53,791 bases of DNA from Alphaproteobacteria bacterium (GTDB lineage Bacteria > Pseudomonadota > Alphaproteobacteria > Micavibrionales > UBA1664). Shown here piece by piece: positions 5,833 through 45,430 of the stretch. The DNA lies in contig JAMIFL010000159.1 of the NCBI GenBank assembly GCA_035906295.1, positions 1 through 53,791 of the forward strand, read 5' to 3'. Each line of letters opens with the position of its first letter. The first letter of the stretch is position 1. Position numbers and translations under genes: made by a program. The notes beneath the pieces are model-generated. The model was not told the DNA's origin. It did no database searches and saw only the letters and a list, made by a program, of their open reading frames with translations.

Positions 5833-5892
5833 TAACACTAACCCGCGTGTACGCGAAGGTAGGTGGTACATGACAACATGAGCCAATTAAGG

Positions 5893-5924
5893 CCCGTCAG
5901 GCTATAAACCTGACGGGTTCTTTT
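5893..5924 (+). terminator. terminator-like hairpin inside the IS-like element
   Basis: CCCGTCAGG (5893-5901), a 7-nt loop, CCTGACGGG (5909-5917), then TTCTTTT. Confidence 0.55.
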
Positions 5925-6152
5925 ATACCAAAACAGCGATTCGTTCGTCAACCGTCTTGTACTTCGTTTTGAAGAATAATATCGTATTTTTAGCACGGCC
6001 TAATGCCGTGTTGGGGCTTCGAAACCTCTGAATCCATAGACCTCGCCTACGGCGGGGAGGCGTTAGCTATACAAGAACCTTCGGGTAAAGGCTGGCGCGA
6101 ACCTTCCTATGGAATCGGTTTTTCGAACTCCCCGCCACCAGCGGAGTTCGAT

Positions 6153-6557: not shown

Positions 6558-6715
6558 CGGACTAGTTTTTCAATAGCGCGTTCAAATGTCTCGCCAGTTT
6601 CGTCAACTTCAACCTTACGGGCATACTCGATAAACCGTTCCTTTTGAGTAAGGCCCGGTTTTACTTTTTTCGATGATTTTTTCTTCTTAACCACGCGCCT
6701 CCGCAGTTGTTTCAT
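6554..6715 (-). CDS. small basic/acidic ORF overlapping the 3' end of the transposase gene
   Basis: Absent from the ORF track (53 aa). The ATG at 6715..6713 lies in the +1 frame relative to the transposase. It gives MKQLRRRVVKKKKSSKKVKPGLTQKERFIEYARKVEVDETGETFERAIEKLVR, with its stop at 6554-6556. The ERFIE..A......DE....FE.A..K pattern recalls small proteins I have seen on alphaproteobacterial mobile DNA. That is memory only. Confidence 0.35.
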   Translation of the reverse strand: MKQLRRRVVKKKKSSKKVKPGLTQKERFIEYARKVEVDETGETFERAIEKLVR

Positions 6716-7643
6716 AGGTCAGGCGTTTGCCCATGACACAAGCCAACAGCATTTCAGCACGCTGTACATCGTTATAGCCCAGTTTTTCGCGGTGATTGTA
6801 GCGGAAATCGTATTCAGACAGATAGCGGTGCAAGTGCTTTTCATCGCAGTGCTGATAGATGCCCTTCATGCCGCGCTTGAAAATGCTGAAGAAACCTTCC
6901 GCGCTGTTGGTATTGACAAGACCGCGGACATATTCTCCAGAGGCATGGTGGACGGTGTGGTGTTCTGCGACGTGGCCTTCAGCGCCAATGTATAGGCGGC
7001 TCTCGTCGGTATGCAAATGACTTTCACGGGCTACGTTCTCAACAACGATACGAGCAACAGTTTGCTTGTTGGCGCTCTTCACATGGAAAGACCGGGCTTT
7101 TCCGCCGCGTTCAACCAGAGACACAATGGCGCGTTTGTTTGCAGGACCGCGGTTACCAGTTTTATAGGGCAAGCCATCGAAAACACGAGTGGTACGGGGA
7201 TTAGCCACTTTTCCATGATAGGTTTCGTCCGCTTCGACGATTTTACCGTCACCGCCTAACGGACCCAGGGCGCCATCCTTCATGGCTTCGCGGATTCGGT
7301 GGGACAGGAACCAAGCGGATTTGAGAGTGATGCCCAAAGTACGGTGCAACTGGTTAGCAGACACACCTTTCTTAGATGATGAAATCAGGAAAATAGCCTG
7401 CAACCAGATATGCATTTTGATATGGCTGCTTTCAAAAATGGTGCCCACTTTCACCGTAAACGGCTTACGGCATTGATAGCACTTATGAACGCCAATGCGG
7501 GTGCTTTCGCCTTCCAGCTTGCCGATACGGTCAAATCCTCCGCAGTGAGGGCAGACTGGTCCATTCGCCCAGATGCGAGCCTCAACAAACCGATAAGCGG
7601 CCTTTTCGTTGTGGAAGTGTGCAGCTGAAAGTATGTTTTTCAT
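6687..7643 (-). CDS. IS1595 family (ISXO2-like) transposase
   Basis: 318-aa ORF. It has an N-terminal zinc ribbon (CPHCGG...KCYQCRKPFTVKVGTIFESSHI), an HTH region (LHRTLGITLKSAWFLSHRIREAM) and a DDE region beginning IVEADETYHGK. Confidence 0.9.
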   Translation of the reverse strand: MKNILSAAHFHNEKAAYRFVEARIWANGPVCPHCGGFDRIGKLEGESTRIGVHKCYQCRKPFTVKVGTIFESSHIKMHIWLQAIFLISSSKKGVSANQLHRTLGITLKSAWFLSHRIREAMKDGALGPLGGDGKIVEADETYHGKVANPRTTRVFDGLPYKTGNRGPANKRAIVSLVERGGKARSFHVKSANKQTVARIVVENVARESHLHTDESRLYIGAEGHVAEHHTVHHASGEYVRGLVNTNSAEGFFSIFKRGMKGIYQHCDEKHLHRYLSEYDFRYNHREKLGYNDVQRAEMLLACVMGKRLTYETTAEARG

Positions 7644-8146
7644 GGTTTTCTCCTATGAAACCAACCCTAAAATCCACATTGGGGTACGTCAAGTATAATA
7701 ATGGGAATATAATCATAAATCATGCTATGCTTCCCCATGCCTCACCCAACCCCCGCCATCACCCCCGCAAATTTTCTGCAAAACGAACTGAGCAGCCCGA
7801 AAAAACGCACCCTTTCAAGGCCATGGCCCCTCAAACGCCGTCTGGCGCAGGCCCGCCGCTGCCGCCTGTCGCGCCCATGGCGGCATGCCACCGGCCCCCG
7901 CACGGCAACCGGCAAATCCCGCGCCGCGCAAAACGCGTACACCACCGGCGTACACCATGCGCAAACCCGCATGGAGCGGCGCGAAATCGCCTTCTTCTTC
8001 CGCTGGCACACCCGCTTCCTGCGTGATGTCCGCGCCGCCCGCCCGCTGGCCCCGCATCACATCCGCATGCATGCCGCCTTCCGGCATTTCGTAACCGCGC
8101 TTATGGATTTGCAACCCGGCGCGAAGCCCGTAGAATCGGCGGCACC

Positions 8147-10105
8147 ATGACCGACACGCCCCTCTGGACCCCATCGCCCGCAACCGTAACCGGCAGCCGC
8201 CTCACGGCCTTCCGCGAACAGGCCGAAAAACGCAGTGGTAAATCCCTGCCTGATTACGCCGCTTTGTGGCACTGGTCCGTCACCGACATCGAAAACTTCT
8301 GGGACCTCGCATGGGACGCGCTCGGCGTCATCGGCGACAAGGGCCATACGCTGCTCGCCAACCCGAACGCCATGCCCGGCGCGAAGTTCTTCGCCGACGG
8401 CCAACTCAGCTTCGCCGAAAACTGCCTGCGCCGCCGTGATGATGATGACGCCATCGTCTTCTGGGCGGAAGACAAAATCAAACGCACGCTGTCATGGAAA
8501 CAACTTTACGACCGCGTCTCGCAACTCCGCCAATTGCTCATCAAGCTCGGCGTCAAAAAAGGCGATCGCGTCGCGGGCTACATCTCCCATATGCCCGAGG
8601 CCGTCATCGGCCTGCTCGCCGCCACGTCCCTTGGCGCCATCTGGACCAGCGCTTCGCCCGATTTCGGCGTGCAGGGCGTGGTCGACCGCTTCGGCCAGAT
8701 TCACCCCAAAGTCGTCATCGCCATGGACGGCTACTGGTACAACGGCAAAGTCATCGACTGCTTGGGCAAACTCAAAGAAATCCAGCCGCAGATCGAGGGC
8801 CTCGAACACACGCTCGTCATCCCGTTCTTAAGCAAAACGCCCGACCTCTCGGGCCTGTCCAACGCGCAGAATTTCGACGCGGCCTGCGACGCCTTCACCC
8901 CCGGCGACATCGCGTTCGAACGCTTCCCCTTCAACCACCCGCTGGTCATCATGTACTCATCCGGCACCACGGGGGCCCCAAAGTGCATCGTCCACGGCGC
9001 GGGCGGCACGCTCATCCAGCACATGAAGGAACACCAGCTCCAGTGCGACATCAAATCCGGCGACCGCGTCTTCTACTTCACCACCTGTGGCTGGATGATG
9101 TGGAACTGGCAGGTCTCGGCCCTCGCGTCCGGCGCCACGCTGCTGACCTATGACGGCTCGCCCTTCTACCCCTCCGGCAACGTCCTGTGGGACTACGCCG
9201 ACGTCGAACGCATGACCCTCTTCGGCACCGCCGCCAAATACATCGACGCCATCAAGAAAGCCAACCTGCGCCCCGCCGAAACACATAAGCTTCACGCACT
9301 CCGCACGCTCACCTCCACCGGCTCCCCGCTGGTGCATGAAAGCTTCGACTACATCTACGACGCCATAAAGGCCGACCTGCATTTGTCTTCCATCTCCGGC
9401 GGCACTGACATCATTTCCTGCTTCGTCATCGGCAACAACATCTCGCCCGTCTGGCGCGGTGAAATTCAGGGCGCGGGCCTAGGCTACGCCATGGACGTGT
9501 TCGACGACGAAGGCAAACCCATCGCCCCCGGCGCCGGGCAGGGCGAACTCGTCTGCACGCGGGCCTTCCCCAGCATGCCCATCGAATTCTGGAACGACGA
9601 AGGCGGGCAAAAATACCACGCCGCCTATTTCGACCGTTTCCCCGACATCTGGGTTCACGGTGACTGGGTCGAACGTACCCAACACGGCGGCTGGATCATC
9701 CACGGCCGTTCCGACGCGACGTTGAAACCCGGCGGCGTCCGCATCGGCACGGCTGAGATTTACCGTCAGGTCGAACAGGTGCCGGAAGTGCTGGAATCAT
9801 TGGCCATCGGCCAGATGTGGGAAGGCGACCAGCGCATCGTCCTCTTCGTCCGCCTGCGCGACGGCGTCGCACTCACCGACGATTTGCAACAGCAAATCCG
9901 CAACACCATTAAAAAGGGCGCGTCCCCGCGCCACGTCCCCGCAAAAATCATCGCCGTCACCGACATCCCGCGCACCAAGTCCGGCAAAATCACCGAACTC
10001 GCCGTGCGCGACATCGTGCATGGCCGCAAGGTCCGCAACGTCGAAGCCCTCGCCAACCCGCAGGCGCTCGACCTCTACAAAGACCTGGATGAACTTAAAG
10101 TATGA
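8147..10105 (+). CDS. aacS: acetoacetyl-CoA synthetase (acetoacetate-CoA ligase)
   Basis: 652-aa ORF. The N-terminus LWTPSP...LTAFREQAEKRSGKSLPDYAALWHWSV is characteristic of acetoacetyl-CoA synthetases. It has the AMP-binding motif YSSGTTGAPKCIVH and a C-terminal PRTKSGK. Confidence 0.92.
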   Translation: MTDTPLWTPSPATVTGSRLTAFREQAEKRSGKSLPDYAALWHWSVTDIENFWDLAWDALGVIGDKGHTLLANPNAMPGAKFFADGQLSFAENCLRRRDDDDAIVFWAEDKIKRTLSWKQLYDRVSQLRQLLIKLGVKKGDRVAGYISHMPEAVIGLLAATSLGAIWTSASPDFGVQGVVDRFGQIHPKVVIAMDGYWYNGKVIDCLGKLKEIQPQIEGLEHTLVIPFLSKTPDLSGLSNAQNFDAACDAFTPGDIAFERFPFNHPLVIMYSSGTTGAPKCIVHGAGGTLIQHMKEHQLQCDIKSGDRVFYFTTCGWMMWNWQVSALASGATLLTYDGSPFYPSGNVLWDYADVERMTLFGTAAKYIDAIKKANLRPAETHKLHALRTLTSTGSPLVHESFDYIYDAIKADLHLSSISGGTDIISCFVIGNNISPVWRGEIQGAGLGYAMDVFDDEGKPIAPGAGQGELVCTRAFPSMPIEFWNDEGGQKYHAAYFDRFPDIWVHGDWVERTQHGGWIIHGRSDATLKPGGVRIGTAEIYRQVEQVPEVLESLAIGQMWEGDQRIVLFVRLRDGVALTDDLQQQIRNTIKKGASPRHVPAKIIAVTDIPRTKSGKITELAVRDIVHGRKVRNVEALANPQALDLYKDLDELKV

Positions 10106-10877
10106 ACGCCGCCCGCGGCCCCGCGATGAACCCGGTATTTTCGAACTGCGCGTCCCGCTTGCCGTAAACGATGGGCCTGTGCGTATCGAGGTTCAGCACC
10201 GCCCCGCCCGCCTCGCGCAAAATAATGTCTCCCGCCGCCGTATCCCACTCGTAAGTCGGCCCCAGCCGTGGGTAAAGGTCCGCGGCCCCCTGCGCCAGCA
10301 AACAGAACTTGATGGACGACCCGCGTTCCTGCCGCGACGCCACGGTATGCGCGCCGATGAACGGCTCCATCACCTCCGGCTCGCTCGCCCGTTTCCGGCC
10401 CAGCACCGCATACCCGTCGCTCGGCACCGCCCGCATCATGATGCGCGTGGCTTCGCCCTCCGCAATGCGCCAAGCGCCTTCGCCTCTGGCCGCCCACCAC
10501 GTAAACCCGTGCGCCGGCGCGTGGATGATGCCCAGCACCGGCTGGTCGCCGTCGATGAGCGCGATGTTCACTGTAAAATCCCGCGACGCCTTGATGAACT
10601 CGCGCGTCCCGTCCAGCGCGTCCACAAGCCAGAACGCGCCGCCGGGCGCGATGCTGGGGGCCGGGCCTTCCTGCATCGCCTCTTCCGCCACCACGGGGTG
10701 GGGGCTGAGCGTGCGCAGCGCCTCCAGCACGATCGCCTCCGCCGCCCGGTCTGTGGCGGTCACCGGGCTGCCGTCGGGCTTGGCGATGATGACGGGCGGC
10801 GTGCCCCAGTCAGTCATAATGCGCGCGCCTGCTTCAACAGCGGCGGAAATCAGCGCTTCGCGCAATGTGTGGTCCAT
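10095..10877 (-). CDS. cysQ: 3'(2'),5'-bisphosphate nucleotidase CysQ / inositol monophosphatase family
   Basis: I use the internal start (MDHTLREAL, ATG at 10877) of ORF 10095..10997. Motifs: WLVDALDGTREF, and WDTAAGDIILREAGG near the C-terminus. The longer start would overlap the divergent SapC gene. Confidence 0.85.
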   Translation of the reverse strand: MDHTLREALISAAVEAGARIMTDWGTPPVIIAKPDGSPVTATDRAAEAIVLEALRTLSPHPVVAEEAMQEGPAPSIAPGGAFWLVDALDGTREFIKASRDFTVNIALIDGDQPVLGIIHAPAHGFTWWAARGEGAWRIAEGEATRIMMRAVPSDGYAVLGRKRASEPEVMEPFIGAHTVASRQERGSSIKFCLLAQGAADLYPRLGPTYEWDTAAGDIILREAGGAVLNLDTHRPIVYGKRDAQFENTGFIAGPRAAFIL

Positions 10878-10948
10878 CCGATAAAACCCTTTGCCAAGGC
10901 CCATTTTTGGCCTATTTTTGCCCCATCGACAAGCACAAGGGAAGCCCC

Positions 10949-20985: not shown

Positions 20986-21026
20986 GCCCCCATCATAGGG
21001 GCTGGACTATTGGGCGTAAAGCGCAA

Positions 21027-21093
21027 CCGCGCCGTCAGGCGCAAAAGCAAGCCACGCCGTCAGGCGTAAAACCGAACCACGCCGTCAGGCGTA
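21027..21093. repeat. three tandem copies (period 25 bp) of a hairpin-containing unit
   Basis: ccgcgccgtcaggcgca lies at 21027-21043. ccacgccgtcaggcgta lies at 21052-21068 and again, identical, at 21077-21093. Each unit has the core palindrome CGCC-GTCA-GGCG. The third copy encodes the last codons and the stop of ORF 21085..21768. Confidence 0.85.
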
Positions 21094-22642: not shown

Positions 22643-23488
22643 ATGGCCATGAACCACATCATACGCACAGGGCTTGCGTGTATCATGGCCCTGTGCGCGG
22701 CGGCCTGCACGCAACTGGGCTTCGCCGCCGCCAACGCGCCGGGGCTGCGTGACGTGGCAGCGGCTAACGATGTCATGTTCGACAAGGCGCACGCTTTGGC
22801 GCTCGATGTCTATGCCCCCAAAAGCCATGCGGATGCCTTGCCCGTGATTGTCTTCATCCATGGCGGCCGCTGGCAGTCGGGCGATAAGGGCGATTACGCC
22901 TTCGCGGGCGCGGCACTGGCCCGGCAGGGCTTCGTCGTCGTTATTCCCGACTACCGCAAATACCCCGACGTGAAATTCCCGGCCTTCGTCGACGACGCGG
23001 CCCGCGCAGTTGAATGGGCGCACGAAAACATCGCGCCCTACGGCGGTGACCCTGCGCGCCTTTTCGTGGCCGGTCACTCATCCGGCGCGCATGTGGGCGC
23101 GTTGCTGGCCGCCGATGAACGGTATGTACCGCGCGGTATCATCAAGGGGTTCGCCGGTCTGGCGGGTCCCTATGCCTTTACCCCCGACGAACCGGATTTG
23201 CAGGACATGTTCGGCCCGCCGCAAAACTACCCGGCCATGCAGGTCACCCGTTTCATTGACGGTCGGGAACCGCCGATGCTGCTGCTCTACGGCACCGCCG
23301 ATAAAGCCGTGGCACCCTACAACCTCGAACGCCTCGTAACCGCCGTTCACGCCAAGGGCGGGCAGGTCGAAACCATCCTCTACCCCGATGTCACCCACAC
23401 CGGCATCATCGCGGGATTAAGCTGGTTCAGGCGCGGCAACCCGCCCGTGGCGCAGGATATGGCCCGGTTCTTCAAAGCGGTGAAATAA
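22643..23488 (+). CDS. alpha/beta hydrolase (esterase, fold-3 type), probably exported
   Basis: 281-aa ORF. It has an N-terminal signal or lipoprotein-like sequence (IMALCAAAC), an oxyanion region FIHGGRWQSGDK and the nucleophile elbow GHSSGAH. Confidence 0.85.
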   Translation: MAMNHIIRTGLACIMALCAAACTQLGFAAANAPGLRDVAAANDVMFDKAHALALDVYAPKSHADALPVIVFIHGGRWQSGDKGDYAFAGAALARQGFVVVIPDYRKYPDVKFPAFVDDAARAVEWAHENIAPYGGDPARLFVAGHSSGAHVGALLAADERYVPRGIIKGFAGLAGPYAFTPDEPDLQDMFGPPQNYPAMQVTRFIDGREPPMLLLYGTADKAVAPYNLERLVTAVHAKGGQVETILYPDVTHTGIIAGLSWFRRGNPPVAQDMARFFKAVK

Positions 23489-23494
23489 AGAGGA

Positions 23495-23523
23495 AAATGG
23501 TGCCGTTGAAAGGATTTGAACCT
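23495..23523 (-). pseudogene. orphan tRNA-Thr 3'-end fragment (duplicate of 23627-23655)
   Basis: aaatggtgccgttgaaaggatttgaacct is identical over 29 nt to the CCA, acceptor and T-arm end of the intact tRNA-Thr plus 3 flanking nt. It then diverges. No D or anticodon arm is present. Confidence 0.85.
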
Positions 23524-23629
23524 CGTTGCGCTTGGCGCAATAAACACCTCGTCGCGCTTGGCGCGACAAACATATACGTTTGAAGGTCCAAAACCTTTCA
23601 ACGCGATGCATTGGAAATGAAGAGAGAAA

Positions 23630-23704
23630 TGGTGCCGTTGAAAGGATTTGAACCTTCGACCCTCGCATTACGAATGCGATGCTCTACCCCTGAGCTACAA
23701 CGGC
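23630..23704 (-). tRNA. tRNA-Thr (anticodon CGU)
   Basis: The reverse complement is GCCGTTG-TA-GCTC-AGGGGTA-GAGC-A-TCGCA-TTCGTAA-TGCGA-GGGTC-GAAGG-TTCAAAT-CCTTT-CAACGGC-A-CCA. 75 nt, anticodon CGT. Confidence 0.93.
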
Positions 23705-23825: not shown

Positions 23826-23920
23826 GGGAAGCCGGTGGCGGGCGAATGCGTCGCTAACCCGGTCAGGTCCGAAAGGAAGCAGCCGTAACGATTTTGCTTC
23901 GGGTCGCTATCCGGTTTCCT
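23826..23920 (+). ncRNA. ffs: signal recognition particle RNA (small bacterial 4.5S type)
   Basis: It contains the near-invariant domain IV sequence GGTCAGGTCCGAAAGGAAGCAGCC, compared with E. coli 4.5S GGUCAGGUCCGGAAGGAAGCAGCC. It is closed by the long-range pairing GGAAGCCGG (23827-23835) with CCGGTTTCC (23911-23919). Inner pairings are GGCG..CGAA with TTCG..TCGC. The ends are approximate to within a few nt. Confidence 0.85.
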
Positions 23921-23957
23921 ACTTAATCTTCCAAAAAATCAGAAAATTTCAGGGAAT

Positions 23958-26900
23958 TCAGGACGGTGCGCGCCCGCGCGGTTTTGGCGCGCGCGGCCCC
24001 GTGTACTGGAACCCGCCCTTGTCCGGCAGCGTGGTGATGATGGCGTCGGCGTTTTCAACATGCGCCGCGCGCAAGGTGGCGCGGATGTTGAAGATGGCGG
24101 CGTAGGCCGTTTTTTCCGGGTGCCTGTGCGTGGGGTAGATTTCGGCCCCCAGCGTGCGCGCGGCCACCGGCTCCGCCCGCTGGTTGAACAGGCGGCGCAG
24201 CACCTTGTAATGCGTCTGCGAGAAGCCCTTGTCCGTGCCGGCAATCATGGCGGGCTTGCCGGAATCGGGCGCGTATTGGATGCGGAAATCGCCGAAATCC
24301 ATGCTGTGCGCGGTATCCAGCGCGGGCGTAGCTGGCGGCACCGGCGCCATCTGCACCCGGCCATCGGCGTCGAATGCCAGCAACGGCGCGTCGCCGGACA
24401 GGCCGGGCAGCGCCGCATTCAGGCGCGCCAGTACGCCGGGCAGGTAGCCGGACAGGGCCTTGTTTTCAGGCGCGATCGTCATGGCGAGGTCCCGGCGGCT
24501 GACCCATTCGCCGCGCCGTTCGGGCGCCGCCAGGTGCAGCAGGATGCGCCCGCCGAGATTGGAGACCGCGACCTGCGTGTCGCCACGGGCGACCACGGCG
24601 TCCTTCATCGAGTTTTCCTGCAGCGTGACGGAGAAATTATCGAAGCCATGCGTGACCGGCGGCTGGCTGGCGGCCGGTTTCGGCGCGCGCGTTTTTTCGG
24701 CCACGGGGGCTGCGGGCGGCTGGGTCTGGCCCGGCGCCGCGAAACACACGCCATGCCCGTTGGCGGCATAAAGGGTGGTCTCGGCCGCGTCGCCCATGGC
24801 TTTTTGCAGGACGGCGCGCGCGGCGTCGATGGTGCGCTTGGCCATGACGTAGCGGGATGCGTCAGTCCCTTCGAACAGCGTTTGCCCGATGCTGGCGCGC
24901 GACACCCACGCGCCGCGCCGGGCATGCAGCAGGTCGAACAGCGCGAGTACAGCGCGCGGCACCACCACGTCCGTGCCGGTCACCGTGGCCGCGTCCTTGC
25001 GGCCCGTGGGCTGGATGGTGACGCTGAACGGGCCGAAATCGCGCAGTTCCGGTTCGGGTTTTTTGGGCGGGGCGGGCAGGTCGGGGCAGGGCTGGCCCTG
25101 TTTCGCCACGGTTATGCCGTGCTTGTTTTCGATGCGGAAGACCCGCGCGCGCCCTTCGGGCCCCAGCGCCTGTTCGAATGCGGCTTCGATTTTGGGCAGA
25201 ACCGTGCGCAGGTTGGAAACGAAGCATTTATCGTCCGGCGAAACGGCCTGCCCGATCTGCGCACGGCTGACCCATGTGCCGCGCAGGGCCGGACCCGCCG
25301 CGTGGCGGATGATTTTGACCGCCACCTGTGAAATGAGGCGCCGTCCCTGCGCCCCTTCCAGCAGCGCCATTTTGTGGGCGCCGAGGTCGTGGATTTTGAA
25401 ATCGCCGAAATCCTCGGTGCCGAGAATGCGGGGCTGGGTTTGTTGGGGTTTGACGCCCCGTTCGGCAGTAGGCTTGGAGATGGACTGGCGCGTGGCCGGT
25501 GCGGGGTCCGGAATGCTTTCCGGTTCCAGCGTTTCACCGGGGCGCAGCAGGCGCATGCGGCCATTGCGCACCAGCAGGATGTCGGTGGCCTTGCCGGTTT
25601 GCCCGCGCACGGCCAGCTCGCCGTCGAATGCGCGGCGCAGCTCCGCCGTCACGCCGCTCAGGCTGGCATCGCGGTTCTGCATTGCCGGGAAAAGGGCGCG
25701 GCCCAGCGCATCGCGGTCAAGGAACATGCCGGGCGCGGCATGCAGGTGTTGCAGCAGGCCGAAAGCCCCGCCGCTCAACGCACGGTCGCTGCCTGCCACG
25801 AGCCGCGCGCGCTGCTTGCGGTCATGCACGTTGACGGTGAACCAGCCGAAATCATGCGCTACCGGCGGCGATTCAGGTTTGGGTTCTGCCGCCGGCCTGG
25901 GAGCTGGTTTCGCGGCGGGCTTGTTGCGCGTCCTGCCGCTGCCGGCGCGGTGGGAAAACTGCTGGCGCAAACTGCCGGTTACTGTGGGAGGGGTCACCGC
26001 GGGCGTGGCCGGTTTGGGAAGGATCGGTGCGCGGACGGGCTGTGCTGCCGGTGTGGACGATGCGGCCACGGGCATCATGATGCGCTGGGCATGGCGCAGC
26101 TCACGTTGCAGCGCGTCCGTTTCCTGCCCCAGCATGTCGGTGAGCCGCGCCAGCGACGGGCGGATATGCGCCGGAACGAGATGGGTGACATACAGCACGA
26201 AGCGCAGCGGCGTAAGCTCGGCATAAGCGTCGGCGACGGCCACGCCGTGGGCGGGACCGAGCAGCGCACGCGCCCATGACAGGTGCGTGTCGTCCGGCTC
26301 ACCGTCCACGTCTGCGGCGGGTGGGGGCGTATAGGCGGTGAATGCGGCTGGCGCGGGCGCGGGTTTGGGGGGTGCCGCTGGCGTGGAATCTTCGGCCCCG
26401 TCTTCTGCCCCGTCTTCCGCCGTATCGGACGGCCCCGCGTCGCCGGTATCGCCGTCGGCCTTCGCGGCTTTTTTGCCGCGTGCCGGGCCGTCGGGCGCGC
26501 GCAGAAGGGTTGAGAGCTGGGTATAGGTTTCCTGCACCGGCGTGCCGCGCACGGCCTGCGTCCAGTAAGCGACGGTGTAGGCCACGCGTTCGAACAGGTC
26601 GAAGTAATCGAGCGAGTGTCCCGCGCTGGTGTTCGGGTTTTCGTTCCGCGCGCGCATGTAGCCGACGATTTCGCGCAAAACCCCGGTCAGTTGCGCCGGG
26701 TCCGTCACGCGGGCGCGTTGCTCAAGCCCGGGCAGGTGGGTGGAAAGCGCGCGGCCCTGCACCTTGACCGGCTTCGCCTTTTTGACCGCGGTATAAAGGG
26801 CTTCCAGCGCTTTTTCCGCCGTGTCGTTTGCGACCGGCGCCAGTTTCGCGATATGCGCGCCGTGCGCCACCAGATGCGTGCCCGTTCCGTCCGGGTTGCC

Positions 26901-27062
26901 GAGGAAGCGGCCCTGCACCAGCGTCAGGTCCTGCCCCGCGATGATTTTTTCCTCGATGCCGTGGAAGATGAACCACGCGCCGGTGCGGGTATCCACCCCC
27001 AGCTGGCCCGGAATCCATTGTTCAACGGGCGGCAGTTTTTTCGCGGCGGCTTTGGGCGGCAT
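23958..27062 (-). CDS. large multi-winged-helix protein: unknown N-terminal region plus five tandem OmpR/PhoB-type (Trans_reg_C-like) DNA-binding modules
   Basis: An uninterrupted 1034-codon ORF. Five modules of about 100 aa each begin with a DFGxF-type strand (HDFGWFTV, EDFGDFKI, RDFGPFSV, HGFDNFSV, MDFGDFRI). Each follows the PhoB/OmpR C-terminal domain pattern. For example, module 5 MDFGDFRIQYAPDSGKPAMIAGTDKGFSQTHYKVLRRLFNQRAEPVAARTLGAEIYP...AYAAIFNIRATLRAA....IITTLPDKGGFQY compares with PhoB [49 protein letters not shown]...VDVHIRRLRKAL....VQTVRGTGYRF. The modules are joined by Pro-rich linkers. No receiver domain and no TM segment are present. Confidence 0.85.
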   Translation of the reverse strand: MPPKAAAKKLPPVEQWIPGQLGVDTRTGAWFIFHGIEEKIIAGQDLTLVQGRFLGNPDGTGTHLVAHGAHIAKLAPVANDTAEKALEALYTAVKKAKPVKVQGRALSTHLPGLEQRARVTDPAQLTGVLREIVGYMRARNENPNTSAGHSLDYFDLFERVAYTVAYWTQAVRGTPVQETYTQLSTLLRAPDGPARGKKAAKADGDTGDAGPSDTAEDGAEDGAEDSTPAAPPKPAPAPAAFTAYTPPPAADVDGEPDDTHLSWARALLGPAHGVAVADAYAELTPLRFVLYVTHLVPAHIRPSLARLTDMLGQETDALQRELRHAQRIMMPVAASSTPAAQPVRAPILPKPATPAVTPPTVTGSLRQQFSHRAGSGRTRNKPAAKPAPRPAAEPKPESPPVAHDFGWFTVNVHDRKQRARLVAGSDRALSGGAFGLLQHLHAAPGMFLDRDALGRALFPAMQNRDASLSGVTAELRRAFDGELAVRGQTGKATDILLVRNGRMRLLRPGETLEPESIPDPAPATRQSISKPTAERGVKPQQTQPRILGTEDFGDFKIHDLGAHKMALLEGAQGRRLISQVAVKIIRHAAGPALRGTWVSRAQIGQAVSPDDKCFVSNLRTVLPKIEAAFEQALGPEGRARVFRIENKHGITVAKQGQPCPDLPAPPKKPEPELRDFGPFSVTIQPTGRKDAATVTGTDVVVPRAVLALFDLLHARRGAWVSRASIGQTLFEGTDASRYVMAKRTIDAARAVLQKAMGDAAETTLYAANGHGVCFAAPGQTQPPAAPVAEKTRAPKPAASQPPVTHGFDNFSVTLQENSMKDAVVARGDTQVAVSNLGGRILLHLAAPERRGEWVSRRDLAMTIAPENKALSGYLPGVLARLNAALPGLSGDAPLLAFDADGRVQMAPVPPATPALDTAHSMDFGDFRIQYAPDSGKPAMIAGTDKGFSQTHYKVLRRLFNQRAEPVAARTLGAEIYPTHRHPEKTAYAAIFNIRATLRAAHVENADAIITTLPDKGGFQYTGPRAPKPRGRAPS
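24000..25856 (-). repeat. protein-level tandem array of five winged-helix modules within the 1034-aa ORF
   Basis: Module coordinates from my residue count: aa 403-508 = 25539-25856; aa 550-656 = 25095-25415; aa 674-776 = 24735-25043; aa 805-906 = 24345-24650; aa 921-1021 = 24000-24302. The repeats are diverged. I noticed no nucleotide-level repeat. Confidence 0.75.
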
Positions 27063-27200
27063 GGGTCTTTCCTCGAACGTCGTGGCAGACAGTATGTCTA
27101 TGGAAATAATAAAGTTACGTCAAACGCCGAATATGCGTGAAGCCGGGATAAGCGGCGGGCGATTGTTGCGGGGGGCTGCCGAAGGCATTAAAACAATTTT

Positions 27201-28925
<1,725 letters not shown>

Positions 28926-28956
28926 TTCCAGGGTCCCGATTTCAAGGAGTGACGTC

Positions 28957-29772
28957 ATGAAAATCATGACCTGGAACATCAATTCCGTGCGCCTGCGCAA
29001 GGACCTCGTCCTGCGTGCCATCAGCGAACTGGACCCCGACATCGTCTGCCTGCAGGAGACGAAAAGCCCCGATGAATTGTTCCCGCTGAAGACCTTCGTC
29101 GATGCCGGTTTCAAACACGTCCACATGAACGGCATGAAGGGCTATAACGGCGTCGCCATCCTCTCCCGCCATGAATTTCAGGCGTACGACCGCTGGGATC
29201 GCGTGGGTAAATCCGACTGCCGCCACGCCGCTGTAAGCGTACAGGTCAAAAATTTTAAAAAACCGCTGCAAATTCATAACCTGTACGTGCCCGCAGGTGG
29301 TGATATTCCTGATGTTGAGGTGAATGATAAATTCGCGCACAAACTCAGTTTCGTTGACGAAATGAAGACCTTTTTTGCCGATAATTACACGCGTACGGAC
29401 CCTATGATAACGCTGGGTGATTTCAACATCGCGCCGCTGGAACACGACGTGTGGTCGCACAGGCAATTGCTCGACGTGGTCAGCCACACGCCCATCGAGG
29501 TGGAGAAACTGAACGCCATGCAGGACTCCCTCAAATGGGTCGACGGCGTGCGCAGCTTCGTGCCGGAAGACCAGAAGCTCTATAGCTGGTGGTCGTACCG
29601 GAATAAGGATTGGAAGGCATCGAACCGTGGCCGCCGTCTCGACCACATCTGGGTGACGCCGGCGCTTAAGGAGTCGGTGAAGGATTATAAAATCCTGAAA
29701 GACACCCGCGACTGGGTCCAGACCAGCGACCACGTTCCCGTGCTGCTCGACCTCGACCTCAAGGCCGCTTAA
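28957..29772 (+). CDS. xthA: exodeoxyribonuclease III
   Basis: I use the internal start of ORF 28861..29772. The ATG at 28957 is preceded by AAGGAG. MKIMTWNINSVRLR, DIVCLQETK, and a C-terminal SDHVPV. Confidence 0.93.
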   Translation: MKIMTWNINSVRLRKDLVLRAISELDPDIVCLQETKSPDELFPLKTFVDAGFKHVHMNGMKGYNGVAILSRHEFQAYDRWDRVGKSDCRHAAVSVQVKNFKKPLQIHNLYVPAGGDIPDVEVNDKFAHKLSFVDEMKTFFADNYTRTDPMITLGDFNIAPLEHDVWSHRQLLDVVSHTPIEVEKLNAMQDSLKWVDGVRSFVPEDQKLYSWWSYRNKDWKASNRGRRLDHIWVTPALKESVKDYKILKDTRDWVQTSDHVPVLLDLDLKAA

Positions 29773-30128: not shown

Positions 30129-30973
30129 TGGGAATTGTTAAGACCGGCCTCCTGATGGGGGTAATGACCGCGTTGTTCATGGGCATTGGCGGCATGGTGG
30201 GCGGGCAGAGCGGGGCTATGTTCGCCTTCGCCATCGCCGCCGTGATGAACATGGTCGCCTACTGGAACAGCGACAAAATGGCCCTGCGCTATTACCGCGC
30301 CGTCCCGGCGGATGAAAACAACGCCCCCGGCCTGACGGCCATGACCGTCCAGATGGCAACCAATGCCGGCCTGCCCAGTCCGCGTGTCTATGTTTTCGAT
30401 AATGAGCAGCCCAACGCCTTTGCCACGGGCCGCAACCCGCAAAACGCAGCCGTAGCCGTGTCAACCGGGCTGCTGCGCCGCCTGAACATGGCGGAAATCG
30501 CGGGGGTCGTGGCGCATGAACTGGCCCATATCAAGAACCGCGACACGCTTATCATGACGGTCACGGCGACGCTGGCCGGGGCCATCGGCTGGCTCGCCAA
30601 CCTCGCCGTGTTCTTCGGCCCGCGTGACGCACAGGGGCGGAGCAACCCCCTGATGGGCCTGCTGGTCATGATCTTCGCGCCCATGGCCGCGGCCCTCGTG
30701 CAAATGGCCGTCAGCCGCGCCCGGGAGTATGAGGCCGATCGCATCGGCGCCGAGATTTGCGGCCGCCCCCACTGGCTTGCGGATGCGCTGGAAAAGATTT
30801 CCGGTGCGGCCCATGTGACCGACAATATGCGTGCCGAGGCGAACCCGGCGACGGCCCATATGTTCATCATCAACCCGTTGCACGTCCGCAAGGTGGATAG
30901 CCTGTTCAAAACCCACCCGCCGACCCAGGAACGCATCCGCCGCCTGCGTGAAATGACCCTCAATGGCCAATAA
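30128..30973 (+). CDS. htpX: zinc metalloprotease HtpX (M48 family)
   Basis: 281-aa membrane ORF with [10 protein letters not shown] (HExxH) and a downstream EYEADR glutamate ligand region. Confidence 0.93.
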
Positions 30974-32306
30974 TTCTGAATTGGAACAGGGTGTTGCTAC
31001 ACGCCTTGCCGCGGTTCATGTGCTTGAAGCCGTGCTCGACCGACAACTGACGCTGGACGAAGCCTTAACCCGCATCGCCAAAAAATCGAGACTTGGAGAC
31101 GATGACAGGCGTCTGGTTCACGCCATCGCTGCCAGTGTTTTCAGGAACTTACCCTACATTGACGACGCATTGAAGCGTCTGATGCAGCGCGATTCCGACC
31201 CCCGTCCGAAGCTGCTGCACCACCTGCTCAGGGTGGGGGTGGCCCAGCTTTGGTACCTCGCGGTAGCCCCGCATGCTGCGGTTCATACCTGTGTGTCAGC
31301 CGCTGTGTCACTGAAGCTCAATACTCGTAAAAGCCTTGTAAACGCTGTGCTTCGCGCGGCGCAGCGTGAGCATGATGCGGGGGTCACGCCTGAAACGGAT
31401 GCGCTGAAACTGATGGCCCCATGGCTGGCCGAACGCTGGGTTAAGAATTATGGCCAGTCCAAAGCCCATGACCTTGCTATGGCCATGCGGCAGGAAGCCC
31501 CCATTGATGTAACCATGAAAGACCCTCAGGCATCACTTGAATGGGCGCGCTTGAACGGCGGTGAAGAGGTGCTTCCCGGCGCGGTTCGGGTGCTGCATCA
31601 CCCCGGTCAGGTTACGTCATGGCCCGGATTCGATGTCGGTGCGTGGTGGGTGCAGGATCTTGCTTCTTCTTTGCCAATCAAGCTCTTAAGTAATGTCTCA
31701 GGAAAGTCGGTTCTGGATATGTGCGCCGCACCGGGCGGTAAGACCATGCAACTGGCTGCACTGGGTGCAAAGGTCACTGCACTGGACGCTGCACCGGCGC
31801 GCATGGCACGGCTTACCGAAAATCTTGCCCGCACCGGCCTGAGCCAACGGGTCGAAACACTGGTCGCAGACGCACGCACATGGCAACCCAAGGTCGGCCC
31901 GGCTGACCAACCTCATGTATTTGATGCAGTGGTGCTCGACGCCCCATGCTCCGCAACCGGTACTTTAAGGCGTCACCCCGAACTGCCTTGGATTCATTCA
32001 CAAAATCAGGTTGAAAAGATGACCCTGATCCAGCGTGACTTGCTGCGACGCGCATGCGACTGGGCCGTAAACGGGGGTGTTGTGCTGTATATCACCTGCT
32101 CCATGGAGCCGGAGGAGGGTGAGGCGCAGGTTGAATCATTGCTGGCTGAACGCAATGATATCAAGCTGATAAGCGATATGCCTGCACTGATGCATCCGTA
32201 TTTGCAGCCCGGTTTCAATAACATTGGTTTCCGCACGAATCCTGCCATCCAGACCCCCGCGGGCGGCATGGACGGGTTCTTCATGGCCCTTTTGAAAAAG
32301 GTATAA
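30963..32306 (+). CDS. rsmB: 16S rRNA (cytosine967-C5)-methyltransferase RsmB/Sun family
   Basis: 447-aa ORF with an N-terminal NusB-like region, the SAM motif [10 protein letters not shown] and catalytic [15 protein letters not shown]. Confidence 0.9.
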
Positions 32307-42531: not shown

Positions 42532-42655
42532 GCGATGACTCCTGCGGCTGGAATGACGATGCCATGCGTTTTATGGCAATTATTCCGGTCTTGTCCAGTT
42601 TTTCGCGTTAATGCGCGCGGGCCCCCCGCACGTTAGTGCGCACGTCCCCCGCACG

Positions 42656-45430
42656 TCAGTGCGCACGCCCCCACGTGTCGCCGATGCCCGCCTCGGCCAG
42701 CAGCGGCAGGCCGATATCGGCCACGTCCGGGCTTTCCATGATGCCTTTGATGAGGCTGGCGGCATCAGCGGCGTGGTCTTCGCGCACTTCGAACACCAGT
42801 TCGTCGTGCACCTGCAAAAGCATCTTGCAGTCGAAATCGCCGTTCAGGAGCGCGCGGTCGATGCGCACCATGGCGCGTTTCATGATATCCGCCGCAGTCC
42901 CTTGCAGGGGCGCGTTGATGGCCTGCCGTTCGGCGAAGCTTTTGCGCGGGCCTTTTTCGTGGATGCCGTCGATCATGCATTTGCGCCCGAACATGGTTTT
43001 GACGTAGCCGAACTGCCGCGCCTCGGCCTTCGTGCGTTCCATGTAGTCCGACAGTTCCGGGAAACGGGCGAAGTAAGCCTTGATGAAGGCGTTGGCCTCC
43101 GCCGCCTCGATGCCGAGTTGTCGCGCGAGGCCCCAACCCGAAATGCCGTAGATGATGCCGAAATTGATGGCCTTGGCCTTGCGGCGGATGTCGCTGGTCA
43201 TCTCCGCCATCGGCACGCCGAACACCTGTGATGCCGTCATCGCGTGAATGTCGAGATTGTCGCGGAACGCCTGTTGCAGCGCCGGAATGCCCGCGATGCT
43301 GGCGGCGAGGCGCAGTTCGATCTGGCTGTAGTCGGCGGAGATGAGCTTGTAGCCGTCCCGCGCCACGAACGCCTCGCGGATTTTTTTGCCGTTATCGGTG
43401 CGGATGGGAATGTTCTGGAGGTTGGGATCGGACGAGGCGAGGCGGCCCGTGGAGGTATGCGCCAGCGCGAACGAGGTGTGCACCCGGCCCGTGCGGGGGT
43501 TGATGTCCTGTTGCAGCGAGTCCGTGTACGTCGATTTCAATTTCGACATCTGCCGGAAATCCAGCACCTTCTGAACGATGGTATGGCCTGCTTCCGCCAG
43601 CTCCTCAAGAATGTCGGCGGAGGTGGACCAGTCGCCCTTCTTGGTTTTGCCGCCGCCCTGCAACCCCATTTCGCCGAACAGCACGTCGCCCAGTTGTTTG
43701 GGGCTGGCGACGTTGAACGGGTGGCCCGCAAGCGCATGGATTTCCGTTTCAAGCTGCGCTATCTGCGTGCCGAAATCCTGGCTGAGACGCGCCAGCATGC
43801 CGGTGTCGATGCGCACCCCCGCCTGTTCCATGCGCGCGATGACGGGCGACAAAGGCCGGTCCATCGTCTCGTACACCGTGACCATCTGTTCCGCCGCGAG
43901 GCGGGGTTTGAGAAGCGTATGCAGGCGCAAGGTGACATCGGCGTCTTCCGCCGCATAATCGGTGGCCTTGTCCACCGGCACCTCGGCGAAGCCGATTTGC
44001 TTGGCGCCCTTGCCGCAGACATCTTCATACGAAATGGTTTTGTAGTTCAGGTGCATGGCCGCGAGGTCGTCCATGCCGTGGCCGTGGCGGCTGCCGTCCA
44101 GCGTGTAGGAAATGAGCATCGTGTCGTCGATGGGCGCGACGGTGACGCCGCGTGAGGAGAACATCTGCAAATCGTACTTGATGTTGTGGCCGACTTTCAG
44201 CACACCCGGGTCTTCCAGCAGGGGACGCAAAATATCGAGCGCTTCGTGTTCCGGCATCTGCGTGACGGTCTGGGCGGGGCCGCCCAGCAGGTCGGCCATC
44301 GGCGCGCGGTGGCCCAGCGGCACGTAAATGCCGGATCCGGTTTCATAGGACAGCGAAATGCCGACAAGGTCCGCCTTGGCGGGGGTGAGGGAAGATGTCT
44401 CGGTATCGACCGCGATGACGCCGCGCGAAATGGCTGCGGCAACCCACGTCCTGAGCGTTTCGGCATCGTTGACCGTGGTGTAGCGACCCTTGGCGCTGAG
44501 CGCGGCGTCGACGGGGGCTGTGTCTTTTACCGGCTGCGGCATGTGCGGCGCGGCTGGCATTGCCGCCGGGGCCTGCCCCAGCCGTGCCAGGATGGTCTTG
44601 AAATTATACTGCGTCAGGAACGCGATGAGGGCCGTGTTGTCGGCGGACCCGGCGCCCAGTTCGTTCAGCGGGCGGGGCAGCGGGGAATGGTCGTCCAGCC
44701 GCACCAGTTGCTTGGAAATGCGCGCGAGGTCCGCGTTCTGTTCCAGCGTTTCGCGCCGCTTGGGCTGTTTGATTTGCGACAGGTTGTCGAGCAGCGCCTC
44801 AAGCGTGCCGAACTGGTTGATGAGTTCCGCCGCCGTCTTGACGCCGATGCCGCGCACGCCCGGCACGTTGTCGGTGGGGTCGCCGCACAGCGCCTGCACG
44901 TCCACCACCTTGTCGGGCGTGACGCCGAATTTCTCAAAAACCTCGGCCTGCGCCAGCGGCTTCTGCTTGATGGGGTCGAACATGACGACCCCGTCGCGCA
45001 CAAGCTGCATCAAATCCTTGTCCGACGACACGATGACGACGTTCAGCCCCGCCTCGCGCCCCACGCGGGCGTAGGTGGCGATGAGGTCGTCGGCCTCGTA
45101 CCCTTCGGCCTCCAGCGGTTCGAACCCGAAAGCGCGGGTGGCGTCGCGGATGAGGGGGAACTGGGGAATGAGGTCCGGCGGCGTCTCATCCCGGTTGGCC
45201 TTGTATTCGGCATAGATGTCGTTGCGGAAATTGGCCCGCGCGGCATCGAAGATGACGCCCACGTGTTTGGCCTGCAACTCGCGCAGAAGCCGCATCATCA
45301 TGTTGGTGAAACCGACCACGGCCCCCACCGGCGTGCCGTTACTGGTCAGCGGCGGCAGGGCGTGGAACGCCCGGAAAATGAAGCCGGAGGCGTCGACGAG
45401 GTAAAGCGTGTCTTGTGGGGTGTCGGTCAT
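42656..45430 (-). CDS. polA: DNA polymerase I
   Basis: I prefer the start at 45430 (MTDTPQDTLYLVDASGFIFRAFHALP); the ORF opens at 45457. The 5'-nuclease, 3'-5' exonuclease and polymerase domains are present (DYSQIELR, RRKAKAINFGIIYG, QVHDELVFE). Confidence 0.97.
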   Translation of the reverse strand: MTDTPQDTLYLVDASGFIFRAFHALPPLTSNGTPVGAVVGFTNMMMRLLRELQAKHVGVIFDAARANFRNDIYAEYKANRDETPPDLIPQFPLIRDATRAFGFEPLEAEGYEADDLIATYARVGREAGLNVVIVSSDKDLMQLVRDGVVMFDPIKQKPLAQAEVFEKFGVTPDKVVDVQALCGDPTDNVPGVRGIGVKTAAELINQFGTLEALLDNLSQIKQPKRRETLEQNADLARISKQLVRLDDHSPLPRPLNELGAGSADNTALIAFLTQYNFKTILARLGQAPAAMPAAPHMPQPVKDTAPVDAALSAKGRYTTVNDAETLRTWVAAAISRGVIAVDTETSSLTPAKADLVGISLSYETGSGIYVPLGHRAPMADLLGGPAQTVTQMPEHEALDILRPLLEDPGVLKVGHNIKYDLQMFSSRGVTVAPIDDTMLISYTLDGSRHGHGMDDLAAMHLNYKTISYEDVCGKGAKQIGFAEVPVDKATDYAAEDADVTLRLHTLLKPRLAAEQMVTVYETMDRPLSPVIARMEQAGVRIDTGMLARLSQDFGTQIAQLETEIHALAGHPFNVASPKQLGDVLFGEMGLQGGGKTKKGDWSTSADILEELAEAGHTIVQKVLDFRQMSKLKSTYTDSLQQDINPRTGRVHTSFALAHTSTGRLASSDPNLQNIPIRTDNGKKIREAFVARDGYKLISADYSQIELRLAASIAGIPALQQAFRDNLDIHAMTASQVFGVPMAEMTSDIRRKAKAINFGIIYGISGWGLARQLGIEAAEANAFIKAYFARFPELSDYMERTKAEARQFGYVKTMFGRKCMIDGIHEKGPRKSFAERQAINAPLQGTAADIMKRAMVRIDRALLNGDFDCKMLLQVHDELVFEVREDHAADAASLIKGIMESPDVADIGLPLLAEAGIGDTWGRAH

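Follow-up and report, generated by a model that had tools for sequence, protein, structure and literature searches.

The region between ffs and dnaX in a Micavibrio-like alphaproteobacterium raises the question of what is done by a large protein ending in a row of winged-helix modules, and how its gene came to lie at this site. The window analysed was a single stretch of 53,791 nt, in which the frame, here called gene X, was confirmed to run uninterrupted for 1034 codons on the minus strand (23958..27062), giving a product of 1034 aa. Its domains, in order, are a predicted CarD-like N-terminal domain, an acidic linker, a small helical domain, a basic Pro-rich linker and five winged-helix (wHTH) modules.

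A Shine-Dalgarno sequence, GAGGAAAG, is located 6 nt 5′ of the ATG. The GC3 value is 0.81, compared with approximately 0.82 in the neighbouring genes, in agreement with the native-looking codon bias noted in an earlier, sequence-only reading of this DNA; together with a position kept in 8 of 8 related loci, this indicates that gene X is real and native. Several long overlapping ORFs are present on the other frames of the region.

As had been proposed, gene X lies between the small SRP RNA gene ffs (23827..23922, plus strand), with which it is convergent, and dnaX (27201..28925, plus strand, with an alphaproteobacterial DUF3646 C-terminus), from which it is divergent; both form conserved boundaries of the locus. 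Beyond ffs, on the side away from gene X, is a tRNA-Thr gene (23630..23704, minus strand), and the att-like scar reported there was found to be real, with 23482-23523 duplicating the tRNA 3′ end (23614-23655) at 93% identity. The suggestion that gene X was acquired next to this tRNA was not upheld, since the scar lies across ffs and all 8 related loci carry a gene of this type at the dnaX-ffs site.

Nucleotide homology with six related loci is lost where ffs ends and returns approximately 15–20 bp before the dnaX start codon, delimiting a variable cassette (23928..27181) that consists of gene X and about 120 bp upstream. In two genomes, the flanks match at 94% identity in nucleotide sequence and 97% in protein sequence, and the gene X alleles are only 31% identical. 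A divergence of about 70% between near-identical genomes, with sharp boundaries at ffs and the dnaX start, is a striking allele replacement. The oddity of the locus is this replacement inside a fixed site, not acquisition beside a tRNA, and it suggests that a putative DNA- and RNAP-binding protein is under strong diversifying or frequency-dependent selection. The divergent intergenic region between gene X and dnaX (27063..27200), which falls largely within the cassette, shows no conservation among relatives and no repeats were found in it. An iterated binding site, raised earlier as a possible target, was sought in the local intergenic DNA and none was found, which leaves this idea unsupported there.

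Module boundaries were set with an iterated module HMM, which recovered five modules in the product, within a few bases of the five tandem segments described previously. They are module 1 (M1; aa 403-507, 25542..25856, pI 11.5), M2 (aa 550-654, 25101..25415, pI 9.9), M3 (aa 674-776, 24735..25043, pI 9.5), M4 (aa 805-906, 24345..24650, pI 6.1) and M5 (aa 921-1022, 23997..24302, pI 9.4; alignment A3), all on the minus strand. The modules are mutually homologous, with pairwise phmmer E values of 1e-4 to 1e-11 among M1–M4 and weaker values for M5, and M1 gave weak matches to the DNA-binding domains of RstA and CarR and to the C-terminus of PRK07239. Scanning of the segments for Trans_reg_C (PF00486) gave a divided result: in the gene X product M5 alone matched, at 23.4 bits and below the cut-off of 26.2, whereas homologous modules exceeded it in P0004 (56.5 bits, 3 stretches), P0010 (59.9), P0003 (43.7) and P0009 (34.2).

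A profile of 50 family modules matched 49 OmpR/PhoB/ToxR/CadC DNA-binding domains in the PDB (best E 1.9e-10), the matches covering profile positions 3–104 of 106. AF2 modelling, which covered M4, produced a wHTH with a pLDDT of 92 and the topology β1–β4, α1, β5, α2, α3 and wing hairpin (E2-6, E11-15, E22-26, E29-33, H35-45, H56-63, H70-84, E95-97 and E103-105). In Foldseek, the best 50 matches of this model were all OmpR/PhoB/ToxR/CadC DNA-binding domains (TM 0.6–0.75), and the single best was that of CadC (5ju7). These results bear out the earlier assignment: all five modules are OmpR/PhoB-type winged helices, M4 as judged from its model and M1, M2, M3 and M5 from homology.

M1, M2, M3 and M5 are basic and M4 is acidic; across the family, 78% of 58 modules have a pI above 8. 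The core of the modules is conserved and the exposed face of the recognition helix α3 is variable. Canonical DNA-contacting residues of α3 are kept only in part, and the commonest residue at the LR(K) motif position is the corresponding basic one. The terminal, M5 type is the best-conserved module type in the family (39–46% identity), and its α2-α3 loop motif YYPxH..P is strongly kept.

The first 400 or so residues had been regarded as belonging to no assignable family, and this no longer holds. Residues 1-190 (26493..27062, minus strand; family HMM match 26448-27062) gave an AF2 model, built from 7 sequences, with a pLDDT of 82.8 and a pTM of 0.78, in which five strands (within 21-76) are followed by five helices (within 79-187). 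Foldseek comparison with the PDB placed CarD in all six best positions (E 7.6e-6 to 1e-3), with TM-scores of 0.57–0.61 normalised to the target over 172–178 aligned columns spanning both subdomains; the top CarD matches include 4l5g, 4xax, 6edt, 9e87 and 8hvr_H. Mfd, which carries the RNAP-interacting domain (RID), and then isolated N- and C-terminal domains of CdnL came next. The model thus suggests, at the level of prediction, that aa 1-190 adopt the two-subdomain CarD/CdnL fold, a Tudor-like RID followed by a helical domain. At the sequence level, none of 7 N-terminal domains had a Pfam match at E<10, PF02559 included, a PDB profile search with the domain gave no match, and hhalign against M. 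tuberculosis CarD (sequence verified as 4kbm_B) gave a probability of 0.07%. Inspection of alignment A5 by eye found a Trp in the loop equivalent to that of the CarD wedge Trp in P0011 only and none in the gene X product. A different domain of some homologues starts with YHPxYGPGxxLG, resembling the CarD/TRCF RID; its best relevant PDB match was the Mfd RID, a weak one (E 0.67).

The N-terminal domain is followed by an acidic Pro/Ala-rich linker (aa 191-256, 26295..26492, minus strand; net charge −9) that includes an AEDGAEDGAED tract and a 12-nt tandem repeat at 26389-26421; the acidic tract and Pro-rich linkers described before are thus present. A small helical domain (aa ~257-335, 26058..26294, minus strand) was delimited from alignment A8 and HMM matches. 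Further copies occur in P0002 and P0019, P0003 has several, and the C-termini of P0008, P0011 and P0012 look similar. The domain had no Pfam match, and the PDB gave only weak matches to sigma-factor HTH (E of at least 0.014). A basic Pro/Ala/Lys-rich linker (aa 336-402, 25857..26057, minus strand; net charge +8) leads to the modules.

As expected from the sequence-only reading, the product has no receiver, no transmembrane segment and no BTAD. No Response_reg match was obtained in Pfam or NCBIfam at E<10 and the N-terminal model is a β-sheet with a helical bundle, not (β/α)5; an OmpR-family response regulator was rejected on both counts. The maximum 19-residue hydropathy is 1.46, indicating no transmembrane segment, and neither this nor a signal peptide was found; with no Pfam match to BTAD or NB-ARC, ToxR/CadC-type and SARP/AfsR-type regulators were also rejected.

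Among 1.84 billion proteins, the family forms only 16 clusters at 50% identity. Every member bearing a name is called "hypothetical protein", and the architecture is annotated nowhere, in line with the earlier remark that no described equivalent was known; it is a new architecture assembled from known domains. Both taxonomically assigned members are Micavibrio MAGs, and the family has so far been found only in Micavibrio relatives. The repeat number, which the earlier reading proposed to check, varies from 0–1 to at least 12 modules per protein, with at least 20 in one locus, and recent tandem duplications reach 71% identity. Most members have the N-terminal domain fused to wHTH modules; in GCA_020638235.1, neighbouring genes encode them separately, P0011 carrying the N-terminal domain alone and P0016 the wHTH part. 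The small members P0013, P0009 and P0015 have wHTH modules without the N-terminal domain, and in some relatives the locus is divided into 2–3 ORFs. No homologues were found on plasmids or phages, and P0001, P0002, P0004, P0008 and P0012 had no match among the PADLOC defence models at E<0.1.

With four of five modules basic and no transmembrane segment, the soluble multivalent DNA binder proposed earlier is a reasonable description. With the predicted CarD-like domain, a transcription factor linked to RNA polymerase becomes a likelier role than a passive nucleoid bridge. Our preferred explanation, held tentatively and at a little less than an even chance, is that Micavibrio-like Alphaproteobacteria have a lineage-specific gene with a fixed place between dnaX and ffs, of which gene X is the allele in this genome, and that the product of gene X is a modular cytoplasmic RNAP-tethering transcription factor analogous to Myxococcus CarD. 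The wHTH array would anchor the protein to DNA, at several sites at once or at one long composite site, each module probably having its own specificity because the exposed α3 face is variable over a conserved core. The N-terminal domain would contact the β lobe of RNA polymerase, and the protein would therefore recruit or stabilise RNAP at promoters marked by the array, a logic as in Myxococcus xanthus CarD with the wHTH array replacing the AT-hooks. Arrays may lengthen or shorten by tandem duplication, and whole alleles may be swapped by recombination within the fixed locus.

Fusion in most members and adjacency of the split genes in GCA_020638235.1 were counted in favour of a functional link between the N-terminal domain and the modules. 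Several points weigh against this explanation. The CarD link is one of predicted fold, drawn from a single AF2 model with TM-scores of only 0.5–0.6 and no sequence support, and by eye the wedge Trp does not seem to be conserved. RNAP tethering cannot be the whole story, since P0013, P0009 and P0015 lack the N-terminal domain. Divergence of about 70% where the flanks are 94% identical would be surprising in a global regulator of housekeeping type; the α3 DNA-contact residues are only partly kept and M4 is acidic; and no binding site for the product was identified.

It is unlikely that the product is instead, as the earlier reading suggested, a multivalent nucleoid-associated or DNA-bridging protein, whose five wHTH would compact or bridge DNA and whose N-terminal domain would serve oligomerisation or partner binding unrelated to RNAP. 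Five DNA-binding-type domains on flexible linkers, described as basic (M4 having a pI of 6.1), the missing CarD signal in sequence, the lack of a specific iterated site nearby and the absence of the N-terminal domain from some members would all suit such a protein. Small size, abundance and conservation are the norm for nucleoid proteins, whereas this one has about 1000 aa and is hypervariable; moreover, the CarD fold match spans both subdomains in all six best matches, and wHTH domains of OmpR type are typically sequence-specific.

More doubtful is a role in conflict, in which a fast-evolving DNA-reader array under diversifying selection would either (a) silence mobile elements or phages as xenogeneic DNA or (b) be delivered to prey and take over the DNA and RNAP there; version (a) is likened here to rapidly evolving tandem zinc-finger arrays and version (b) to TAL effectors. 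The 31% identical alleles within nearly identical, sharply bounded flanks, the 1 to at least 12 modules per protein with recent duplications, the variable α3 surface and the identified hosts, Micavibrio being an obligate epibiotic predator (PMC3189940), are consistent with it. Against it are the lack of a secretion signal, of PADLOC matches and of plasmid or phage homologues, a fixed chromosomal site by dnaX that is atypical of effector or defence islands, and the absence of direct evidence about any target. Of similarly low likelihood is a wider proposal that the dnaX-ffs locus of Micavibrio-like predators is the bacterial equivalent of polydactyl DNA readers such as tandem zinc-finger arrays or TAL effectors. 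An evolvable array with 1 to at least 20 wHTH modules of OmpR type would be coupled to RNA polymerase via CarD-like domains, and diversifying selection would act as strains reshuffle and trade the number and specificity of their modules, giving strain-specific re-targeting of transcription on the own genome, mobile elements or prey DNA.

We consider it improbable that the modules have lost DNA binding and act as a protein-protein scaffold, for example by presenting the α2-α3 loop to sigma or other partners. The partly kept α3 contacts, the acidic M4, the direct Pfam score for M5 only and below cut-off, and the strong conservation of YYPxH..P in M5-type modules would fit a scaffold, but the fold is fully preserved, wing included, 78% of the 58 family modules have a pI above 8, and a basic residue is commonest at the LR(K) position. 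A spurious or decaying ORF in a GC-rich genome, to which the long overlapping ORFs and the split loci of some relatives might point, is effectively ruled out by the GC3 of the frame, the Shine-Dalgarno sequence, same-locus homologues in 8 assemblies, family homology with recurring modules, and confident models of the N-terminal domain and M4 with the Foldseek matches of the latter.

In bacteria, OmpR/PhoB winged helices rank with the most common domains for binding DNA and, to our knowledge, occur one per chain, reaching tandem sites by dimerising. The gene X family shows that they can also be joined covalently in one chain, as arrays of 5, 8 or at least 12 units. These are apparently attached to a predicted RNA-polymerase-binding module, a different build of bacterial transcription factor that would converge on the Myxococcus CarD design, in obligate predators that have received little study. 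Should the modules be independent readers, the family may offer a natural scaffold for programmable DNA recognition and a handle on differences in gene control between predator strains.

Among known systems, eukaryotic tandem C2H2 zinc-finger arrays and TAL effectors resemble the family by analogy only, in variable module number, growth by tandem duplication and rapid allele divergence; the fold is unrelated, and reading of adjacent segments and diversifying selection are hypothetical for gene X. OmpR/PhoB response regulators, consisting of a receiver and one Trans_reg_C, share the effector-domain fold and profile similarity with each module. In that family, two domains bind direct repeats in tandem and head to tail by dimerising, whereas gene X has five domains in one chain (1 to at least 12 in relatives) and no receiver, hence no phosphorylation control. 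The one-component regulators ToxR/CadC and SARP/AfsR also have an OmpR-type wHTH without a receiver, and the CadC domain is the best match of M4; theirs is single and N-terminal, with a TM/periplasmic sensor or BTAD/NB-ARC, whereas those of gene X are C-terminal and repeated. The CarD/CdnL proteins of Thermus, Mycobacterium and Caulobacter (~160 aa) have the two-subdomain fold predicted for the N-terminal domain, but they are stand-alone, lack sequence-specific DNA-binding domains, are conserved and often essential, and show no sequence similarity to gene X, in which their wedge Trp, judged by eye, does not seem to be conserved.

The closest parallel is with the global regulator CarD of Myxococcus xanthus, in which the N-terminal domain (CarD_CdnL_TRCF) binds RNAP-β and an HMGA-like C-terminal domain binds DNA (PMC4374960, PMC2919716). 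The DNA-binding part of gene X differs in being five folded OmpR-type wHTH instead of disordered AT-hooks; no RGRP motif was found in its translation, where a myxococcal CarD-type regulator would carry AT-hooks (RGRP) or an H1-like tail, so that the relation is functional analogy and not membership. Sequence comparison detects no similarity of its N-terminal domain to PF02559 or CarD, gene X has no known CarG partner, and it belongs to Micavibrio-like Alphaproteobacteria and is hypervariable. What the two proteins would share, given the predicted fold, is the same order: a Tudor-like and helical N-terminal module, an acidic stretch and a C-terminal DNA-binding region.

Gene X, the 1034-aa ORF between ffs and dnaX (window 23958-27062, minus strand; protein P0001), encodes a soluble protein carrying five OmpR/PhoB-type winged-helix (wHTH) folds, M1 to M5, joined by flexible linkers. 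A family-iterated HMM placed these modules, all on the minus strand, at 25542-25856 (M1), 25101-25415 (M2), 24735-25043 (M3), 24345-24650 (M4) and 23997-24302 (M5), essentially reproducing the coordinates of the sequence-only reading. They were true internal repeats, as that reading had held: M1 to M4 matched one another in phmmer searches at E values of 1e-4 to 1e-11, and M5 matched more weakly. Pairwise identity among the five was only 23-37%; therefore, the modules of the window protein are old. The proposed Pfam check was borne out in part, since M5 alone matched Trans_reg_C, with a score of 23.4 bits, below the cut-off of 26.2; M1 weakly matched the OmpR-like C-terminus of PRK07239 and the DNA-binding domains of RstA and CarR. 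The cut-off was passed by the homologous family proteins P0004 (56.5 bits, three stretches), P0010 (59.9), P0003 (43.7) and P0009 (34.2). A 50-module family profile detected 49 DNA-binding domains of the OmpR/PhoB/ToxR/CadC type in the PDB; DrrB was the best match (E = 1.9e-10), with profile positions 3-104 of 106 aligned and the initial DFGxF strand covered. The one module modelled with AF2 was M4, the most atypical of the five; the model (pLDDT 92, pTM 0.84) showed the canonical order b1-b4, a1, b5, a2, a3 (the recognition helix) and wing, and its top 50 Foldseek matches in the PDB were all of the OmpR-type fold (TM 0.6-0.75), with the CadC DNA-binding domain as the best. The wHTH assignment is firm because of this family evidence, direct Pfam evidence on X being weak, and the modules belong to the Trans_reg_C fold family. 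Domain profile searches of the protein agreed with the earlier view that a receiver domain is absent, and no BTAD, TM segment or signal peptide was found. M1, M2, M3 and M5 are basic (pI 9.4-11.5) and M4 is acidic (pI 6.1). Over 50 family modules, conservation was seen in the hydrophobic core and at the Gly positions, and variation at the exposed positions of a3.

The first 400 or so residues, which had previously seemed unassignable, are now predicted to consist of a CarD-like fold, a small helical domain and two linkers. Residues 1-205 aligned with six homologues (alignment A5 of the family N-terminal domains). The AF2 model of the N-terminal domain (pLDDT 82.8, pTM 0.78) had five strands at residues 21-76 followed by five helices at 79-187, and its six best Foldseek matches in the PDB were all CarD, including those of Thermus (4l5g and 4xax, E = 8e-6 to 1e-5), Streptomyces (8hvr_H) and M. 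tuberculosis (6edt and 9e87, both in open-promoter complexes). These alignments spanned 172-178 columns (TM 0.57-0.61, target-normalised) and so covered both subdomains. Next in the list came Mfd, which shares its RNAP-interacting Tudor-like domain with CarD, and then separate CdnL N- and C-terminal domains. Pfam at E<10 gave no match for any of seven family N-terminal domains, the N-terminal profile matched no PDB sequence, and hhalign against M. tuberculosis CarD (query identical to 4kbm_B) was negative. Inspection of A5 by eye indicated that the CarD wedge Trp is seemingly not conserved. No cdnL gene was found in the DNA examined, and Foldseek against viral structures gave no match to the N-terminal model at E<0.04. 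The predicted CarD-like domain is followed by an acidic Pro/Ala linker (aa 191-256, net charge -9), the small helical domain (aa ~257-335) and a basic Pro/Ala/Lys linker (aa 336-402, net charge +8). Copies of the small helical domain are also present in P0002, P0019 and P0003, and the C-termini of P0008, P0011 and P0012 are similar to it; Pfam gave nothing for this domain, and a PDB profile search returned only sigma-factor HTH matches, all insignificant.

Among 1.84 billion cluster representatives scanned exhaustively with HMMER, just 15 clusters besides X were detected, with lengths from 271 to 1763 aa. Named genomes could be assigned to two members (Micavibrio sp. UBA6145 and an uncultured Micavibrio sp.), and others were labelled "Rhodospirillales bacterium" or "Alphaproteobacteria bacterium"; the X protein had no close relative among GTDB species representatives. 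Micavibrio, an obligate epibiotic predator (PMC3189940), is still listed under Bdellovibrionota in NCBI taxonomy; the DnaX architecture points to an alphaproteobacterium, and the window DnaX, 80% identical to that of UBA6145, has the DUF3646 C-terminus typical of Alphaproteobacteria.

The number of wHTH modules varied among homologues as had been anticipated, from 0 in P0011, which has the N-terminal domain only, through 1-2 in several small proteins, 3 each in P0002, P0017, P0019, P0004, P0008 and P0010, 5 in the window protein and 8 in P0003, to 12 in the gene immediately upstream of P0003, which runs off the contig end; therefore, the P0003 locus encodes at least 20 modules. These two adjacent giant genes occupy the X locus in L009, a relative with 48% GC, at 2-5653 (at least 1883 aa, running off the contig end; 12 modules) and 5650-10941 (1763 aa; 8 modules). 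Identity among the modules of the 12-module array reached 71%, a sign of recent tandem duplication. A conserved domain of ~250 aa, starting with YHPxYGPGxxLGxVTR and lacking from the window protein, was C-terminal in P0002, P0004, P0007, P0010 and P0019 and N-terminal in P0008. Its opening motif resembles the RNAP-interacting domain (RID) of CarD/TRCF, and its best relevant PDB match was the Mfd RID (E = 0.67); hhalign and Pfam were both negative, and a RID-like nature is a possible lead only. P0002 and P0017, which share one 90% cluster, differed at 30 amino acids, all within residues 1-533, with residues 534-1065 identical in both, a mosaic pattern that suggests recombination within the gene.

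In all 8 related loci examined, the X gene or genes were divergent from dnaX and convergent with ffs, followed by tRNA-Thr. In the window, these neighbours are dnaX (27201-28925, plus strand), ffs (23827-23922, plus strand) and tRNA-Thr(CGT) (23630-23704, minus strand). Relatives shared 80% protein identity with the window in DnaX, 73-76% in QueA and 65-74% in AI-2E; X shared 25-44% at most, over fragments. Nucleotide homology to six loci ended at window 23921-23927, the end of ffs, and restarted at 27182-27200, just 5' of the dnaX start; therefore, a variable cassette spans ~23928-27181. The region upstream of dnaX beyond ~15-20 bp falls within it, so the dnaX promoter is not conserved among relatives. 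The sharpest case was L001 (Micavibrio sp. UBA6145) versus L007, whose flanks shared 94% DNA identity and 97% protein identity. Their X alleles (1048 and 888 aa) showed no nucleotide similarity and a protein identity of only 31% over the C-terminal half, and similarity restarted, at 99%, exactly at the X stop codon. Divergence of this kind cannot be the product of change in place and requires replacement of the allele through recombination. The earlier idea of acquisition beside a tRNA has to be rephrased accordingly: the site itself is ancestral (8/8 loci), its content turns over, and the tRNA scar lies beyond ffs. With a mobile-element or defence origin in mind, PADLOC models were compared with P0001, P0002, P0004, P0008 and P0012 and gave no match at E<0.1, and tblastn against plasmids and phages gave none either.

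The 3' end of tRNA-Thr with its flank is duplicated 132 bp beyond the tRNA (23482-23523 versus 23614-23655, 42 nt, 93% identity), with two tandem copies of a 26-nt repeat between both 3'-end copies (23520-23572). The duplicate resembles an att-type scar, as left behind by an integrated element that has since been lost, and sits across ffs from X, on the far side. A second variable spot was observed just past tRNA-Thr, next to the X cassette, with rhodanese/ArsR/CMD genes in L001 (13414-14776) and SDR/acetyltransferase/metallophosphatase genes in L007 (12961-15749). Directly 3' of dnaX, the window (27201-29772) and most relatives have an Exo_endo_phos gene, not ybaB, which is kept after dnaX in L017 only (2721-3044). 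Low GC (0.49-0.55) was observed at window 5001-8000 and 49001-53000, and GC3 was 0.55-0.60 in the genes at 6687-7643 (minus), 30963-32306 (plus) and 51361-53496 (minus), versus ~0.82 in native genes; these may be foreign DNA or merely of atypical composition. Intergenic tandem repeats (23-26-nt units, 2.3-3.2 copies, 82-94% identity) occur at 3977-4061, 21013-21093 and 42621-42672. An iterated binding site for X, suggested previously, was not supported: repeats were absent from 27040-27210, and elsewhere nothing was suggestive.

Two separate, adjacent genes of GCA_020638235.1 encode the N-terminal domain (P0011) and the wHTH part (P0016), which argues, in the manner of a Rosetta stone, that the two parts work together. 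The wHTH array would anchor X to DNA and the N-terminal domain would contact the RNAP beta lobe, so that RNAP might be recruited or stabilised at promoters marked by X. We tentatively favour such an RNAP-tethering role, parallel to that of M. xanthus CarD, at somewhat less than even odds; it does not account for the hypervariability of X. A nucleoid-bridging protein making no RNAP contact appears unlikely. The hypervariability is the reason for considering a conflict protein, acting either as a silencer of mobile elements or as an effector aimed at prey; we regard this as slightly less likely still. A protein scaffold with degenerated wHTH domains is improbable. A spurious ORF can practically be dismissed: a Shine-Dalgarno sequence (GAGGAAAG) lies 6 nt 5' of the ATG, and GC3 is 0.81 (~0.82 in neighbouring genes). 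The frame is uninterrupted, and the excess in overall GC (0.68 versus 0.61) is due to codon positions 1 and 2, i.e. an Ala/Pro/Gly/Arg-rich composition.

No annotated or described equivalent of X was found in the databases and literature searched, all named family members being annotated "hypothetical protein", in line with the novelty claimed earlier for the architecture; no paper among those searched linked Micavibrio with dnaX or described tandem Trans_reg_C arrays. X does not belong to the OmpR-family response regulators, the ToxR/CadC-type or the SARP-type regulators, because the defining partner domains (receiver, TM segment and BTAD, respectively) were searched for and are absent. In M. 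xanthus CarD, a CdnL-like N-terminal domain binds RNAP-beta and an HMGA-like tail, required for full activity, binds DNA (PMC4374960, PMC2919716). The design of X is parallel to this; X resembles CarD-type factors by fold and architecture only, sequence comparisons having given no match to them. In our view, the component domains are known, and what is new is their assembly into a hypervariable array.
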